Shown one piece after another: positions 1-5,125 of a stretch of DNA of 5,125 bases. The DNA lies in the IMG/VR virus record IMGVR_UViG_2698536640_000005, positions 1 to 5,125 of that record; one strand, given 5' to 3'. The position numbers and the translations under genes were made by a program. The first letter of the stretch is position 1; each line of letters opens with the position of its first letter. Source of the stretch: a virus (taxonomy: Duplodnaviria > Heunggongvirae > Uroviricota > Caudoviricetes). The notes below the pieces were generated by a model. It saw only the letters and a program-made list of their open reading frames with translations. It searched no databases and was not told the DNA's origin.

Positions 1-46
1 CCTGACAACCCGGTGTCCTCAACGGGGGAAGGAATAACCCCGCCAT
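1..46 (-). CDS. Partial CDS (first 15 codons only; continues past window start); possibly a DicB-like cell-division inhibitor
   Basis: ATG at 46-44 on the minus strand opens a frame with no stop before position 1 (MAGLFLPPLRTPGCQ...). Only a weak SD-like GGCGGTAAG lies upstream. Its position downstream of the YdfA/B/C-like genes is where dicB sits in Qin, and the N-terminus loosely resembles my recollection of DicB (MKTLLPNVNTSEGC...). Too short to be sure. Confidence 0.3.
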   Translation of the reverse strand, partial: MAGLFLPPLRTPGCQ

Positions 47-290
47 ACTTACCGCCGCGCCATTTCGCGGATTGCCACAACCGGAATCGCACGGTCGACG
101 AAAATTTAACGACAGGCTATCTATGAACCAGCTACCTCGCCGTGCGCTTTCGCGTTATGGTCTGACTTTTCAGGGAAATATCCTTTCAGTAAACTGTCAG
201 TGCCGTATGCTCACCCGCGTCCTGCGCACGCACTCCACCTCACCCATGGAGAACTACTTAATTACCAACCTTAGCTTCGTTGGTTAGCTA

Positions 291-509
291 TTAACGCGGG
301 TATGTAATCATTCTGGCAATGCTTAATGCCGCTGCTTTTTCCAGCCTGGTGATATCCTGCTCCAGAGCGGACAGATTTTCAGCCTGCTTAGCCCTGGCTT
401 CATTGGCCCATTTCAGATCCTGCGCTGCATTAATTTTCTGGCGCATCCACTCATAAAGTTCATCATCGGTATAGTCTGGTGCGATGATGACGGGTTCTCG
501 TTTCTGCAT
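291..509 (-). CDS. ydfC: Small prophage protein, YdfC-like (72 aa), function unknown
   Basis: ORF-track ORF; ATG at 509-507 preceded by SD GAGGAA. Predicted coiled-coil-like middle (AQDLKWANEARAKQAENLSALEQDITRLEKAA). Size and position (third gene after the 51-aa and 42-aa genes) match Qin ydfC as I remember it; the sequence identity itself was not verified. Confidence 0.6.
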   Translation of the reverse strand: MQKREPVIIAPDYTDDELYEWMRQKINAAQDLKWANEARAKQAENLSALEQDITRLEKAAALSIARMITYPR

Positions 510-538
510 ACTGATTCCTCGCGGTGCTGTTTCGCTTA

Positions 539-667
539 TCAGCCGTTAGATTTTGCCGAGCTGGAAAGCGCCTGTTTAAATTCGTTGAAGCTGAGAGCTT
601 CTTCGCCGTCGGCAAGACCTTCGAAGTATTCTTCATAAGCCTTTTCCATGATTGTGTCGAAATCCAT
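539..667 (-). CDS. ydfB: Small acidic prophage protein, YdfB-like (42 aa)
   Basis: Not in the supplied ORF track (too short); found by translating the minus strand. ATG 667-665, stop TGA 541-539, product MDFDTIMEKAYEEYFEGLADGEEALSFNEFKQALSSSAKSNG. SD AGGTGA (673-678) sits 5 nt upstream. The start is 1 nt after the TGA of the upstream gene (TGAtATG), suggesting translational coupling. Size matches Qin YdfB (42 aa) by recollection. Confidence 0.45.
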   Translation of the reverse strand: MDFDTIMEKAYEEYFEGLADGEEALSFNEFKQALSSSAKSNG

Positions 668-668
668 A

Positions 669-824
669 TCACTCACCTGAGTTTCTTTCCAGCCAGCGAC
701 GGGCACCATTTTCGGTTTTAAACGTTTTGCTTTTGGTATACGTCATCGCGGTGAACGTGCCGTCCTGGTTGGGGAACACGCCACATACCAGAGATTCGCT
801 GTTGCCAAGATCGATAGTATCCAT
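669..824 (-). CDS. ydfA: DUF1391-family small protein, YdfA/YdaF-like (51 aa)
   Basis: Part of ORF 669..911; the internal ATG at 824-822 has SD GAGGT 4 nt upstream and gives MDTIDLGNSESLVCGVFPNQDGTFTAMTYTKSKTFKTENGARRWLERNSGE (51 aa), the size of Qin YdfA / Rac YdaF. The in-frame ATG at 911 (SD GAGG, 3-nt spacer) would give 80 aa, so the start is ambiguous. Confidence 0.6.
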   Translation of the reverse strand: MDTIDLGNSESLVCGVFPNQDGTFTAMTYTKSKTFKTENGARRWLERNSGE

Positions 825-1002
825 GCTGACCTCATTTCCCCTTAACGCCGGGGTAGCGGAACTAAAAACCTGCTGCGCTGTTATATAAAGTGTTCCCGCC
901 GTCATGTTCATACGCCTCGGGCTGGCTACTTAACCCCTGACCACTGCCGGGTAACTCGAAGTATTGCCTGGCGTTCTGTGGGCGGGGTGGGTTGATGAAT
1001 GA

Positions 1003-1046
1003 ACAATACCACTACTATTTAATTATGTAAATAGCAGTGCTATTAT
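1003..1046 (-). promoter_or_regulatory. Candidate leftward (PL-like) promoter with overlapping operator palindrome AATAG-N5-CTATT
   Basis: On the minus strand: -35 TTTACA (plus 1026-1031), 17-bp spacer, -10 TATTGT (plus 1003-1008). The palindrome AATAGcagtgCTATT (1030-1044) overlaps the -35; an extra half-site CTATTT is at 1015-1020. The palindrome is nearly identical to the one at 2128-2142 beside the repressor gene. Confidence 0.35.
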
Positions 1047-1055
1047 CGTGGCAAG

Positions 1056-1078
1056 AAAAAAACCACCCGAAGGTGGTT
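1056..1078 (-). terminator. Rho-independent terminator ending the repressor-antitoxin-toxin transcript
   Basis: Minus-strand RNA: 7-bp stem AACCACC / GGUGGUU with UUCG tetraloop (1061-1078), followed by UUUUUCUU (1053-1060). It lies 14 nt after the parE stop. On the plus strand the same hairpin is not followed by a U-tract, so it is unidirectional. Confidence 0.75.
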
Positions 1079-1092
1079 GTTGACAGGAAGGA

Positions 1093-1383
1093 TTAACAGG
1101 TTTTGTTTGGATACTGTCTTCGTGAGTGAACTACATTTACGATCTCGATGTTAGATGCTGTTACTCGGTAAAGTATTATGTAGTTAGGATGAGTCACTAT
1201 CTCACGAAGACTTGGAACTCTTTCGCTCGGTGGGTACAGATAAGGGTGTTCAGTAAGTGACAAAACTGATGTTTCAATGCGTATTTTTAGTCTACGTGCA
1301 GCGGGAGGGTTTTCCTTAGCAATATAGGCTACGATCTGACGTAAATCATCACGTGCAGAAGGTAGCCATAAAATGGGCAGCAT
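1093..1383 (-). CDS. parE: Type II toxin-antitoxin system toxin, RelE/ParE family
   Basis: 96-aa product with a ParE-like pattern (LPSARDDLRQIVAYIAKENPPAARRL ... YIILYRV ... IEIVNVVHSRRQYP). The start ATG overlaps the antitoxin stop (TAATG at 1381-1385), typical of TA coupling. Confidence 0.9.
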   Translation of the reverse strand: MLPILWLPSARDDLRQIVAYIAKENPPAARRLKIRIETSVLSLTEHPYLYPPSERVPSLREIVTHPNYIILYRVTASNIEIVNVVHSRRQYPNKTC

Positions 1384-1574
1384 TACTCACTCCTGTTCGT
1401 TGCAGCTAATTGAGCAATAAGGTTTTCCATTTCAGCCATTACTTCGTCATGTGGAATTGCAGGACGGGGATCTGAGAGGCTTGCTGCCACTTTGGCTCGC
1501 AACCATTCGTTATAGCTGTTTTCTTGTTCGACTGTTTCAAATTCAGAAATTATCGGGGAAAGGGCTGTACTCAT
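1383..1574 (-). CDS. paaA: Small acidic antitoxin, PaaA2-like (63 aa), partner of ParE
   Basis: 63-aa acidic protein immediately upstream of and overlapping parE. Strong SD GAGGAGG 7 nt before the ATG at 1574. Size and context match the PaaA2 antitoxin of the paaR2-paaA2-parE2 locus as I remember it; sequence identity not verified. Confidence 0.75.
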   Translation of the reverse strand: MSTALSPIISEFETVEQENSYNEWLRAKVAASLSDPRPAIPHDEVMAEMENLIAQLAATNRSE

Positions 1575-1591
1575 GTTTTGACCTCCTCAGA

Positions 1592-2092
1592 TTAGGCGCG
1601 ACGACCCTTTTGCGCAGCTAGCCATCGCGCAACGATTTCTTCAATTGATTCTTTTTTCTCCTTCATTTCCTTAAGCATTTTCTCTTTATCTTCTTTGGGG
1701 AAAGCCCTGAACGTCTGGAGCAAATCCCGCTCCATGGGGTCTATATTAAACGGAAGTTCGTTTTCCGATTGTTCCATATCTGCAGATATAGTGACAACAT
1801 TGTCCTCCCCAGACTCTTGGGGATACATCCTTACAATTTGTAACAACTCGGCCATATCTGGTCTGATTGACTCGGGAGGAACTTGCAGCAACCCTGCGAA
1901 CTTGATAACAGCCTCAAGATTTAAAGGTGTCTGACCATTTAGATAATGGCTTACAGCTCCCTGTGTCGAAAATCCCAGAATTTCTGCCGCACGCTCTTGG
2001 GTTAACCCTAGTTGATTTTTTTTCGCCGTCCAGATTTCTTTCAGTCTCTGGGCGGCTTGCAGGTCGATCTCTGACAGGGATTTTCTTTTCAT
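1592..2092 (-). CDS. paaR: CI-like prophage repressor, HTH XRE family (PaaR-like), without an S24 peptidase domain
   Basis: 166-aa product with an N-terminal XRE-type helix-turn-helix (LGLTQERAAEILGFSTQGAVSHYLNG). The C-terminal half is Lys/Glu-rich and lacks the Ser/Lys peptidase motifs of LexA/CI. It is divergent from the Cro-like gene and sits 17 nt upstream of the antitoxin start. There is no canonical SD; a candidate -10 ends 7 nt from the ATG (possible leaderless mRNA). Confidence 0.85.
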   Translation of the reverse strand: MKRKSLSEIDLQAAQRLKEIWTAKKNQLGLTQERAAEILGFSTQGAVSHYLNGQTPLNLEAVIKFAGLLQVPPESIRPDMAELLQIVRMYPQESGEDNVVTISADMEQSENELPFNIDPMERDLLQTFRAFPKEDKEKMLKEMKEKKESIEEIVARWLAAQKGRRA

Positions 2093-2099
2093 ACCTTCA

Positions 2100-2187
2100 A
2101 TTCTAATAAGATTATTAATCTCTTTGAAATAGTGATGCTATTTACTTTTAAAAATAACAATGCTATTAATGATCGTGATGACATCAC
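2100..2187. promoter_or_regulatory. Divergent switch region between repressor and Cro-like genes: operator palindromes and candidate PRM-like / PR-like promoters
   Basis: Palindrome AAATAGtgatgCTATTT (2127-2143); repeated half-site ATGCTATT (2135-2142 and 2160-2167); second palindrome GTGATGaCATCAC (2175-2187). Candidate rightward promoter: -35 TTTACT 2141-2146, 17 bp, -10 TATTAA 2164-2169. Candidate leftward promoter: -35 TTCAAA (plus 2123-2128), 17 bp, -10 TAGAAT (plus 2100-2105). Promoter hexamers are read by eye and unverified. Confidence 0.5.
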
Positions 2188-2199
2188 ATGAGGTGAACA

Positions 2200-2475
2200 A
2201 TGAATCTTGGAGAATATTTGCATCATTCCGGTATAACTCAGAAGCATTTTGCTGAAATTGTTGGGGTAACCCAAGGGATGGTAAGCCATGTCATTACCGG
2301 ACGGGCGAAACTTACGGGGGAAAAAATTTTACGCTGGTGCGAAGCAACAGGCTGGATAGTAACTCCGCACGAGATTGATAGCAGTACTTATCCCAACCCA
2401 ACCGACGGCTTACCTGTCGAGTATCAGGCTAACACACAACCAGAGGCGGGGGTGATTCATGAAAATCAAGCATGA
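2200..2475 (+). CDS. ydaS: Cro-like HTH DNA-binding protein (YdaS family)
   Basis: 91-aa product with an N-terminal HTH (GITQKHFAEIVGVTQGMVSHVITG). SD GAGGTGA 4 nt upstream. Divergent from the repressor gene; overlaps the next gene by 17 nt. Confidence 0.85.
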   Translation: MNLGEYLHHSGITQKHFAEIVGVTQGMVSHVITGRAKLTGEKILRWCEATGWIVTPHEIDSSTYPNPTDGLPVEYQANTQPEAGVIHENQA

Positions 2476-2884
2476 ACACATCCGTATGGCAATGAATGCC
2501 TGGGCGTATCCAGACGGTGAGAAAGTTCCAGCAGCTGAAATAGCCCGGACTTATTTCGAACTGGGGATGACGTTCCCGGAACTGTACGACGACAGCCATC
2601 CGGAAGCCCTGGCCCGTAATACCCAGAAAATTTTCCGTTGGCTGGATAAAGACACCCCTGATGCTGTTGAAAAAATTCAGGCTCTGTTACCGGCGATCGA
2701 AAAGGCAATGCCGCCTCTGCTGGTGGCCCGTATGCGCAGTCACAGCTCTGAATATTACCGTGAGATCGTCGAACGGAGGGATCGGCTGGTGAAAGATGTG
2801 GATGATTTTGTCGCAGCGGCGATCGCCTGGGGCACCCTGACTAACAGTGGTGGTCAGCCTGGTAATGCTGTTGTCGTGCATTGA
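2459..2884 (+). CDS. ydaT: YdaT-family protein (CII-like regulator of lambdoid cryptic prophages)
   Basis: 141-aa product, the size of Rac YdaT, immediately after the YdaS-like gene. SD GGGGGTGA 4 nt upstream. Family assignment rests on size, synteny and recollection. Confidence 0.8.
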   Translation: MKIKHEHIRMAMNAWAYPDGEKVPAAEIARTYFELGMTFPELYDDSHPEALARNTQKIFRWLDKDTPDAVEKIQALLPAIEKAMPPLLVARMRSHSSEYYREIVERRDRLVKDVDDFVAAAIAWGTLTNSGGQPGNAVVVH

Positions 2885-2952
2885 CCAACAATATTCATGC
2901 CGGATTTCTTCCGGATGTTCGAGGGTAAAGTTCGGTATCAGATGAGGTGAGT

Positions 2953-3993
2953 ATGGCTAATGCCTGGCTCAGATTGTGGCATGACATGCCAAATGATCCC
3001 AAATGGCGAACCATTGCCAGGGTCTCAGGACAGCCAATCGCAACAGTGATGGCGGTGTATATCCACCTTCTGGTGAGTGCGTCACGAAATGTCACGACAT
3101 GTCACGGCGTGTCACTACGTGGTCACATTGATGTCACGACGGAAGATTTAGCAAGTGCGCTTGATGTGACGGAAGACGTAATTGATTCAATTTTGCATGC
3201 AATGCAGGGGCGGGTTCTGGATGGTGACCTTATTTCCGGATGGGAAAAACGTCAGGTGCTGAAAGAGGACAATGGTAACGTTTCGCAAACGGCAAAATCC
3301 CCGGCAGAGCGCAAGAGAGCGCAGCGGGAGCGCGAAAAGCTGCGGAAATATGATGCTGATTGTCACGATGAGTCACGACGTGTCACGCATCCGTCACGAC
3401 AAGTCACGACAGATAAAGATACAGATACAGAATTAAACCCCACACATAACGCGCGCATGCGCGAGAGTGCTCCAACCGGTGAGTCGCATGGTGCGCCGTT
3501 GCAGACAGCCGAACCTGAATACCTGGACGGCCTGAGCGAACCGATCGGGAAATTTTCGATGACTACTGTCTGGCAGCCGTCGTCGGATTTTCGACAACGG
3601 GCAGCAGTGTGGGGTATGGCTCTGCCTGAGCCGGAATTTACACCTGCAGAGCTTGCCGCATTCCGGGATTACTGGATGGCGGAGGGGAAGGTTTTCACGC
3701 AGGTTCAGTGGGAGCAGAAATTTGCCCGCCACGTGCAGCACGTCAGGGCACAGGTAAAACCAGTCAGCAAGGGGGTAAACCATGCAGCAGCACCAGGTGG
3801 CACCGCATCACGGGCAGTTCAGGAAATTCGGGCAGCACGTGAGCAGTGGGAACGTGAAAACGGATTTATCAGCGACGGAAACGGCCTGGAAGCTGTGGGA
3901 GCTTATGGGGGAGGTGTATTCGAACCGCTGGACCCAGAAGAACGGGGCCGCACCTTCGAAGCTCTGGATTGCCCAGATTGGCGCGATGACTGA
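2953..3993 (+). CDS. Phage replication initiator / replisome organizer (lambda O-like) with a DnaT-like C-terminal region; origin iterons lie inside the gene
   Basis: Long ORF (the track starts it at GTG 2947; ATG 2953 has SD GAGG at a 5-nt spacer). The C-terminal region FTPAELAAFRDYWMAEGKVFTQVQWEQKFARHVQ resembles the DnaT-like domain of phage replication proteins. Two iteron clusters are embedded in the reading frame, as oriLambda is in gene O. The 3' 212 nt overlap the P-like ORF. Confidence 0.75.
   Translation: MANAWLRLWHDMPNDPKWRTIARVSGQPIATVMAVYIHLLVSASRNVTTCHGVSLRGHIDVTTEDLASALDVTEDVIDSILHAMQGRVLDGDLISGWEKRQVLKEDNGNVSQTAKSPAERKRAQREREKLRKYDADCHDESRRVTHPSRQVTTDKDTDTELNPTHNARMRESAPTGESHGAPLQTAEPEYLDGLSEPIGKFSMTTVWQPSSDFRQRAAVWGMALPEPEFTPAELAAFRDYWMAEGKVFTQVQWEQKFARHVQHVRAQVKPVSKGVNHAAAPGGTASRAVQEIRAAREQWERENGFISDGNGLEAVGAYGGGVFEPLDPEERGRTFEALDCPDWRDD
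3081..3140. repeat. Iteron cluster 1: six GTCAC(G) direct repeats at 10-11 bp spacing
   Basis: GTCAC starts at 3081, 3091, 3101, 3111, 3122 and 3133 (units such as tGTCACGAc), i.e. one per helical turn. Confidence 0.7.
3362..3440. repeat. Iteron cluster 2 (five GTCACG repeats at 10-11 bp spacing) plus adjacent AT-rich tract; candidate replication origin core
   Basis: GTCACG starts at 3362, 3372, 3382, 3393 and 3403, followed directly by the A-rich stretch AGATAaAGATAcAGATAcAGAATTAAA (3411-3437). Iterons followed by an AT-rich unwinding region are the classic lambdoid ori layout. Confidence 0.65.
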
Positions 3994-4447
3994 ACAGCAA
4001 ATCCGGCTGGTCTGCCGTCAGTGCATGGACCGCTGCCGGGCGGGTGAAACGTGGCCCCCGGACCTGGCTGAGTTTGTTGCACTGATTTCGGAGAGTGGGG
4101 CAAATCCATTTGGTCTTACGGTGGATGCAGTGATGGAAGAGTACCGGCGCTGGCGCAATGAATCCTGGCGATACGACGGGAGTGATAAATACCCGTGGCC
4201 ACAGCCTGTGCTGTACCACATCTGCCTCGAAATGCGTACCAGAGGGATTGAGCGCCAGATGACGCAGGGTGAGTTAAAACGACTTGCGGAACGGCAACTG
4301 ACGAAATGGGCAAAGCATGTTGGTAACGGGATGAGTGTTCCGCCAGTGCGACGACAACTGGAAGGGGCGAAACACCCGCAAGGGCCAACGCCAATTGAAC
4401 GGCTGAAACAGGAATACGAACGCCGGAAGGCAGCTGGTTTTATTTGA
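3782..4447 (+). CDS. Replication protein P-like (DnaB helicase loader)
   Basis: The C-terminal two-thirds align by eye with lambda P as I remember it (PPDLAEFVAL vs SPGQFVAWC; DKYPWPQPVLYHI vs ESYPWKSNAHYWL; QGELKRLAERQL vs DAELRRKAADEL). The start is uncertain: ATG 3782 has a good SD (AGGGGG) but overlaps the O-like ORF by 212 nt; ATG 3905 and ATG 3986 (8-nt overlap with the O stop, ATGACTGA) are alternatives. Confidence 0.7.
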   Translation: MQQHQVAPHHGQFRKFGQHVSSGNVKTDLSATETAWKLWELMGEVYSNRWTQKNGAAPSKLWIAQIGAMTEQQIRLVCRQCMDRCRAGETWPPDLAEFVALISESGANPFGLTVDAVMEEYRRWRNESWRYDGSDKYPWPQPVLYHICLEMRTRGIERQMTQGELKRLAERQLTKWAKHVGNGMSVPPVRRQLEGAKHPQGPTPIERLKQEYERRKAAGFI

Positions 4448-4480
4448 ATCTGAGAAACGATTTTGTCGGAGGAAATTTTA

Positions 4481-5125
4481 ATGGAAACCGTATTTGACGC
4501 ACTGAAAGCACTGAAAAGAGCCTCTTCACAGGTAGTGGCGGCCCGCCTTGGAATCAGCCGTGAAGATGCGGTCAACGAACTGTGGAAACTGAAGCGCCGC
4601 GGTGAAGCGGATAACAAGGGTTCGATGTGGCGGCTGATTCAGGCTGGTGAAAGTGAACCGGTGTCACCGGTACCGAAAGTGACAGCGCAAATGCTGACTG
4701 AGGCGATTGAACAACATGGCCCACAAACGGCGGATGAGCTGGCACTGATGTTCGGGATTACCTCCCGCCGGGCGAATTCATCGCTGGCCATGGCAATCAG
4801 CAAAGGGCGTCTGATTCGCGTGAATCAGGGCGGTAAATTTCGTTACTGCATACCGGGCGCTGATTTACCGGCAGAGCCGGAAGCTGCATCCGTAGCGGAA
4901 ACCGATGGTAAAGCCTTTCCTCAGCCAGCAGGTGTTGCGTTACCTGTCCGGGAAGCAGAAACACAGGAAGAAATAAAAACGGAAAGTGTGGCGGTCACAG
5001 TGCAGTCACAGCCGTCGTTCACCAGAAAACATCCGGATGGTCTGATTTTACCATCGCTGCATGTGGCTAACCGCGAGCTGCGCCGGGCAAAAGGTCAGGT
5101 TCAGAAGTGGGAGCGAGTCTGCGCC
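4481..5125 (+). CDS. Hypothetical phage protein with two winged-helix-like repeats (3'-truncated by window end)
   Basis: Not in the ORF track because no stop occurs in the window. ATG 4481 is preceded by SD GGAGG (4468-4472, 8-nt spacer), and the frame stays open for 215 codons to position 5125. Two similar segments ([15 protein letters not shown]...GSMWRL and [15 protein letters not shown]...GKFRYCI) suggest an internal duplication of a winged-helix-type module. Confidence 0.65.

Follow-up and report, generated by a model that had tools for sequence, protein, structure and literature searches.

Five 15-bp sites as predicted operators of a lambda-type immunity switch in an Escherichia coli prophage similar to CP-933P and Qin

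The immunity region of prophage CP-933P in Escherichia coli O157:H7 pairs a PaaR2-PaaA2-ParE2 operon with the genes for YdaS and YdaT (Jurenas et al. 2021, PMC8630535). There, PaaR2 and YdaS footprint the intergenic region, repress reporters of the rightward (PR) and leftward (PL) early promoters and weakly activate the promoter for repressor maintenance (PRM); paaR2 was found experimentally to be leaderless, and PaaR2 octamerises (PMC8630535). In the Qin prophage, DicA represses dicBp, the promoter upstream of ydfA, with operators in both intergenic regions, and this control includes an antirepressor (PMC10448788). Here we analyze a 5,125-nucleotide stretch of Caudoviricetes DNA (positions 1 to 5,125 of IMG/VR record IMGVR_UViG_2698536640_000005), referred to as the window throughout, which by its sequence represents the immunity region of a lambdoid prophage similar to CP-933P and Qin. 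In it we find five sites, each of 15 bp, which very probably serve as operators in a lambda-type immunity switch.

The first-pass annotation of the window had drawn attention to two near-identical palindromes of the form AATAG-N5-CTATT, AATAGCAGTGCTATT at 1030-1044 and AATAGTGATGCTATT at 2128-2142. Both are indeed exact matches and, in a pattern search, the only two in the window; 200 dinucleotide shuffles yielded none. With up to one mismatch allowed, four matches are found against 0.06 expected, the added sites being AATACCACTACTATT at 1005-1019 and AATAACAATGCTATT at 2153-2167. Each of the two loci, which lie 1.1 kb apart, consequently holds a pair of full sites spaced 25 bp from centre to centre. 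The “extra half-sites” previously seen at 1015-1020 and 2160-2167 are present, but they are the right halves of the full sites 1005-1019 and 2153-2167, and the description of one site with half-sites at each locus has to be replaced by a pair at each, joined at the right by a fifth, degenerate site at 2105-2119. The half-site reading AATAG/CTATT was exact but too short. Relatives reveal that the palindrome continues inward to a 7-bp half-site, AATAGCA-N-TGCTATT, and the site at 1030-1044 is a perfect 7-N-7 palindrome.

The sites, none of which is assigned a strand, form a left (OL) and a right (OR) operator group. OL1 (1005..1019, one mismatch per half to AATAGCA-N-TGCTATT) lies on the spacer and extended -10 of a predicted PL, the equivalent of dicBp (1003..1031, minus strand), while the left end of OL2 (1030..1044) lies on its -35. 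This promoter combines TTTACA (1031..1026), a 17-bp spacer and an extended -10 TGgTATTGT (1011..1003), and a promoter scan places its start near 996, reading leftward into the ydfA-like operon. OL2 keeps its position in relatives, and the position homologous to OL1 is occupied in eight of them. The location just past the terminator of the repressor operon and on a predicted leftward promoter, as originally proposed for the first palindrome, is thus borne out. No third OL site was found; beyond OL2 there is just an A-rich tract and the terminator. A “terminator-like” hairpin reported by the scan at 1039..1010 was rejected, as it consists of the facing halves of OL2 and OL1 and is without a proper T tract.

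On the right, three sites occupy the 107-bp gap between the divergent genes for the repressor (1592..2092, minus strand) and the Cro-like protein (2200..2475, plus strand), where the second palindrome had correctly been placed. OR1 (2153..2167), the best-scoring site of the window, overlaps the spacer and extended -10 of a predicted PR (2141..2169, plus strand; -35 TTTACT at 2141-2146, 17-bp spacer, extended -10 TGcTATTAA at 2161-2169). OR2 (2128..2142) lies on the PR -35 and abuts the -35 of a predicted PRM (2100..2128, minus strand; -35 TTCAAA at 2128..2123, 17-bp spacer, -10 TAGAAT at 2105..2100). OR3 (2105..2119; AATAAGATTATTAAT, or ATTAATAATCTTATT on the repressor strand) lies within the PRM spacer. 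The centres of OR3, OR2 and OR1 are 20, 43 and 68 bp from the repressor ATG, and a reading of the sequence puts PR in a register with its two operators identical to that of PL. The PRM -10 ends 7 nt before the repressor ATG at 2092, so a leaderless or near-leaderless repressor mRNA is predicted. A perfect palindrome, GTGATG-A-CATCAC, at 2175-2187 coincides with the predicted start of the PR transcript, ahead of the ribosome-binding site of the Cro-like gene; we rejected it as a further operator on the grounds that it is not conserved in relatives.

We identified relatives by a search for repressor homologs and fetched loci from other genomes, none of them from E. albertii: from Citrobacter (L003), Rouxiella (L004), Yersinia (L005), Providencia (L006 and L007), Proteus (L008), Shigella (L020), Salmonella (L021), a metagenome (L023) and E. 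coli (L025), together with CP-933P (L002), lambda (L027) and Qin (L028). Proteins that have the N-terminal domain of the repressor were found in Shigella, E. albertii, Citrobacter, Rouxiella, Yersinia, Providencia, Proteus, Salmonella diarizonae and metagenomes. In each of L003-L008, L020, L023 and L025, two or three sites precede the repressor ATG by 13-75 bp, in the register of the window, and a second pair, 24-27 bp apart, lies directly past the repressor operon. The position homologous to OR3 is occupied in relatives by clearer sites, such as ATTAGCAATACTATT. Relatives also keep the PRM -10 (TAGAAT or TAAAAT) with its distance to the ATG, the PR -35 pattern TTKACW and, at PL, the order terminator, site, TTGACA, site, TGnTATTGT; in most of them, too, an intrinsic terminator precedes OL. 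The motif search in related prophages that had been suggested therefore places the motif at OR and OL positions in at least seven other genera. No AATAGCA-type sites were found at the operator positions of CP-933P, lambda or Qin.

The 166-aa repressor is a protein of the HTH_3 family with a lambda-CI-type N-terminal domain and a PaaR2-like tail. Its residues 1-90 match the N-terminal domain of lambda repressor (phmmer, 1lmb and 7jvt, E ~1e-9), and the predicted fold of this part agrees with that of lambda cI (template modeling score 0.81-0.93, root-mean-square deviation 1.1-1.5 Å, predicted local distance difference test ~90); all of the top 10 Foldseek hits for the domain are lambda cI. A basic N-terminal arm, MKRK, and a recognition helix, TQGAVSHYLN, are present. 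Residues E33 and E37 align with E34 and D38 in the positive-control patch of lambda repressor; acidity is kept, and we treat this as a lead only. A predicted disordered linker (residues 93-113) is followed by a predicted helix-turn-long-helix tail (residues 119-165), and a Pfam scan of the 166-aa protein gave no match to Peptidase_S24. The tail is 47% identical to PaaR2 over 87 aa, the alignment taking in repressor residues 91-166 only, and it bears a weak likeness to DicA (27% identity over 51 aa); the helix-turn-helix (HTH) domains of the repressor and PaaR2 do not align. We therefore rejected an identification of the repressor with PaaR2 or PaaR1: the tail alone is homologous, and 0 O157:H7-type genomes carry this N-terminal domain together with the OR.

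Within the repressor, TQGAVSHY (residues 43-50) is invariant in 18 aligned homologs. The repressor and the Cro-like protein align through their HTH domains (33% identity, E 5e-8), and their recognition helices are near-identical, TQGAVSHYLNG in the former and TQGMVSHVITG in the latter. The pattern (S/T)QG(M/Y/F)VS(H/Q) in the Cro-like helix is common to all motif-bearing loci, whereas YdaS of CP-933P has AQQTVWQ. Since the helix types track the motif-bearing loci, both DNA-binding domains co-vary with the operator sequence. It follows that co-occurrence alone cannot separate the repressor from Cro, and one might argue that the sites are bound by the Cro-like YdaS-type protein only and that the 166-aa protein recognizes something else. 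However, the repressor recognition helix is equally conserved and nearly the same as that of Cro, as expected for common targets; no other motif is repeated in both intergenic regions; and the repressor and Cro share operators in lambda, CP-933P and Qin. We consider a Cro-only role highly unlikely. The assignment of the sites as OL- and OR-type operators of one repressor, made in the first-pass annotation, is instead supported by their positions, their overlap with predicted promoters and their co-travel with the DNA-binding domain.

A weight matrix gives a second view of the same sites. It was built from relatives of other genera only, with columns picked by alignment position rather than by sequence, and it finds exactly five sites in the window, at 11.9-23.3 bits, with the runner-up at 4.1. 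OR1 scores 23.3 bits, OR2 20.2, OL2 18.2, OL1 13.8 and OR3 11.9-14.0. The resemblance among the sites could nevertheless be a by-product of related AT-rich promoters, through duplicated core elements of PL and PR, or of chance, with no protein-binding function. PL and PR do share the arrangement site-TTKACA-site-TGnTATT, the sites are partly promoter sequence, and the right intergenic region is 73% AT. Yet the dyad symmetry reaches positions that do not belong to a promoter, and OR3 and the outer half-sites fall outside every -35 and -10. Under a conservative null, in which shuffling was restricted to the intergenic regions (5000 shuffles), two or more left sites arose in 1/5000 and three or more right sites in 0/5000. 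Moreover, what is conserved across genera is chiefly the symmetric positions, and the spacers and flanks vary. We also consider a by-product of this kind highly unlikely.

The region between the repressor gene and OL differs among the loci, and the second site pair lies 0.06-2.2 kb beyond the repressor stop codon, varying with the cargo. L003-L008 have no cargo, and L020 and L025 carry PaaA2/ParE. In the Salmonella locus the cargo is HigB/HigA (3612-4339), and in the metagenomic L023 it comprises a HipA-like and a DUF3037 gene with further genes (3787-5360), the OL pair being 2.2 kb away. These differences bear on the proposal that the palindromes are autoregulatory sites of the PaaA2-ParE complex, as in classical type II toxin-antitoxin operons. 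One set of sites does lie upstream of the operon that contains the toxin-antitoxin genes, but the same sites stand at the same positions in L003-L008, where such genes are absent, and also accompany the unrelated HigBA and HipA-like cargo. PaaA2 is without a DNA-binding domain, and CP-933P is regulated by PaaR2 (PMC8630535); we regard autoregulation by PaaA2-ParE as extremely improbable. Equally improbable is a service to a host factor, recombination or packaging rather than immunity, for which nothing specific speaks beyond the fact that AT-rich palindromes can bind nucleoid proteins, since the motif tracks the phage-encoded HTH domain and not the host genus, and is absent from the heteroimmune prophages CP-933P and Qin of the same host.

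Several observations count against the reading of the sites as operators of one switch. With 5 of 14 positions mismatched to the consensus, OR3 is not significant alone: an equally good site arises in ~2.4% of shuffles of the AT-rich intergenic region, and we accept 2105-2119 mainly because relatives carry a clearer site at the homologous position. Because the alignments behind the weight matrix were anchored on the window, the matrix is not fully independent of it. The Salmonella locus has weaker sites and one OL-like site only. In more distant relatives from Chromatiaceae, Pseudomonas and Pseudohongiella (L009-L011, 45-51% identity) one site or none is found, so the range of the motif is limited; for the reading itself these relatives count in neither direction. 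All promoter assignments are consensus matches, and PR, which scores 8/12 plus TG, falls below the threshold of the promoter scan. Finally, looping between OL and OR is a conjecture, as the tail that would mediate it is only 47% identical to that of PaaR2 over the 87 aligned residues.

What was computed are the sites with their statistics and conservation, the promoter-like elements that they overlap and the homologies of the domains; from these we infer binding, PRM activation, looping, autorepression through OR3 and the way in which induction occurs. In the proposed mechanism, repressor dimers would bind the operators through their lambda-CI-type N-terminal domains. Bound at OR1 and OR2, the repressor would occlude PR at both its -35 and its extended -10 and so keep the genes for the Cro-like YdaS, for YdaT and for replication off; bound at OL1 and OL2, it would occlude PL and silence the leftward ydfA-like operon. 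A weak PRM would drive a leaderless or near-leaderless repressor-PaaA2-ParE transcript. Because OR2 abuts the PRM -35, repressor at OR2 could activate its own synthesis, and when repressor is abundant, the weak OR3 within PRM could hold this synthesis in check. The same sites are most likely bound by the Cro-like protein too, in another order of preference, which would make the switch bistable. The PaaR2-like helical tail probably mediates higher-order oligomerization, and the two site pairs, 1.1 kb apart, could consequently be bridged by a DNA loop. As the repressor has no S24 domain, induction would not occur by RecA-stimulated self-cleavage.

Over positions 900-2300, the window shows 99.7% identity to a prophage of E. 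coli FHI_NMBU_10 (L001) that has integrated next to a tRNA-Ser gene. In that prophage, the leftward operon continues from the ydfA-like gene to dicB, an exonuclease and an integrase, in keeping with the earlier suggestion that the distal early operon may include a division inhibitor. This immunity type is present in 72 of 5426 complete E. coli genomes (~1.3%). Homology of the Qin/Rac type, found in 3438 of the same 5426 genomes, stops at about 992-1034, at the edge formed by the PL -10 and OL1, and this stop marks the left boundary of the immunity module. Among deposited phage genomes, a query with the N-terminal domain returned nothing at or above 60% identity, the best matches being CI of an Stx2 phage (52%) and a Rac-type “dicA” (54.5%). 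A search of the literature with six exact site strings retrieved no paper.

The C-terminal parts of the repressors vary on the same DNA-binding domain and operators. Besides the PaaR2-like tail, a short DicA-like tail is seen in L004 and L005 (153-156 aa), and the Providencia repressor of L006 (2995-3753, 252 aa) contains a GDSM motif in a C-terminal part that we read by eye as an S24 domain. A further group of ~244 aa (P0013-P0022) has tandem HTHs, the window-type lambda-CI-like domain followed by a PaaR2-type one, and then the shared tail. As far as sequence can tell, such varied C-termini on a fixed operator set are a case of natural domain swapping. One could go further and see in the operators and the lambda-CI-type domain a portable specificity module, used on at least four C-terminal architectures (PaaR2-like tail, short DicA-like tail, S24-looking domain and second PaaR2-type HTH), with the ~244-aa two-HTH repressors perhaps recognizing two operator families. 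We consider this extension unlikely. In the two-HTH loci L003 (2971-3723) and L023 (3001-3735), the sites at OR and OL are all of the AATAGCA type, and CP-933P-type repeats were found in neither. If the extension is true, the two-HTH repressors might make their hosts immune to two groups of CP-933P-like phages that are otherwise heteroimmune.

The remaining genes of the window fit around this core. What had been called the repressor operon is an operon, more exactly a PaaR2-type three-gene toxin-antitoxin operon, in which the repressor gene is followed on the minus strand by those for a 63-aa PaaA2-family antitoxin (1383..1574; Pfam PF21217, E 1.1e-22) and a 96-aa ParE-family toxin (1093..1383; Pfam PF05016, E 6.6e-18). 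It ends in an intrinsic terminator (1051..1078, minus strand), AACCACC-TTCG-GGTGGTT followed by a T run. Farther left, the listed 80-aa DUF1391/ydfA-like open reading frame (911..669, minus strand) probably starts too far upstream; in the near-identical genome the annotated ydfA-like product has 50 aa and begins at window position 825, with a GAGG ribosome-binding site ahead, and on the strength of this annotation 825..673 is the more likely gene. On the plus strand, the 91-aa YdaS-type Cro-like gene is followed by a YdaT-family gene (2459-2884; Pfam YdaT_toxin), a lambda-O-like replication gene with a DnaT domain, and a lambda-P-like gene.

Two other elements were noted on the rightward side. 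At the ydaS/ydaT junction, GTGATTCATGAAAATCAA (2452-2469) is one base off the YdaT operator TTGATT-N6-AATCAA, and by its sequence it is probably a PRE-like YdaT site, that is, one like the promoter for repressor establishment. In CP-933P, the OM site at the matching position has been footprinted (PMC9986795). Within the O-like replication gene, two clusters of (A/T)GTCACG(A/G)C repeats with 10-bp phasing, at 3081-3140 and 3352-3418, are likely the iterons of an origin, by analogy with lambda ori within gene O.

Three described systems are close to the window. In CP-933P, the gene order is the same, with a regulator-PaaA2-ParE operon opposite a ydaS-ydaT pair; the PaaA2/ParE DNA is ~80% identical, YdaT is 79% identical, and both loci have a homologous repressor tail and share the C-terminal half of the Cro-like protein. 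In both, a terminator and then PL and OL follow parE, and the repressor -10 lies just upstream of the ATG. CP-933P even has 15-bp repeats, ACAATAAAAAACTGT, in the same layout, with a spacing of 24-25 bp in OR as well as in OL. However, the window operators, AATAGCA-N-TGCTATT, are unrelated to ACAATAAAAAACTGT, and we rejected an identity of the two operator sets given that the operator regions of L002 lack the window motif. The lambda-CI-type DNA-binding domain of the window repressor is likewise unrelated to that of PaaR2, and the Cro-like HTH is 41% identical overall with a distinct recognition helix. Given these different HTH domains and operators, the window and CP-933P are predicted to be heteroimmune.

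With Qin, the window shares a short repressor free of a peptidase domain, a cro-like gene divergent from it and, ahead of ydfA, a promoter leading on to dicB. Its PL leader is homologous to that of K-12 (95.7% identity over window positions 900-992), as is the ydfA-like gene, and we would expect the repressor to control this promoter as it is controlled in Qin. DicA, in contrast, is not an orthologue of the window repressor and resembles it weakly in the tail only; the Qin operators are TGTTAGTCATAACTAACA-type repeats, and no toxin-antitoxin cargo lies between dicA and dicBp. 

In lambda, the repressor N-terminal domain is homologous in sequence and, by prediction, in fold, and OR is tripartite in both, the distances from the cI ATG to the centres of OR3, OR2 and OR1 being 19, 42 and 66 bp in the lambda record. 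OL1 and OL2 are 24 bp apart in lambda and 25 bp in the window, and in each case non-essential cargo, rexAB in the former and the toxin-antitoxin pair in the latter, separates the repressor gene from OL. The cI mRNA of lambda is leaderless, and a leaderless or near-leaderless repressor mRNA is predicted for the window. Lambda differs in its 17-bp operators, which are distinct in sequence from the 15-bp sites of the window; moreover, only two OL sites were detected in the window, its repressor is without the S24 self-cleavage domain, and the role of CII is filled by YdaT in the window system.

In sum, the switch design is established for lambda, Qin and CP-933P and is therefore not new in kind; no new regulatory principle is revealed, and the operator sequence alone appears to be undescribed. 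The analysis supplies a predicted operator sequence and arrangement for an immunity type of E. coli and several other Enterobacterales. Set beside CP-933P and Qin, the window presents, at the level of sequence, the classic mosaic pattern of heteroimmune lambdoid phages: the CP-933P-type switch with its toxin-antitoxin cargo would exist in two or more heteroimmune versions, which arose by an exchange confined to the operators and to the parts of repressor and Cro that bind DNA.

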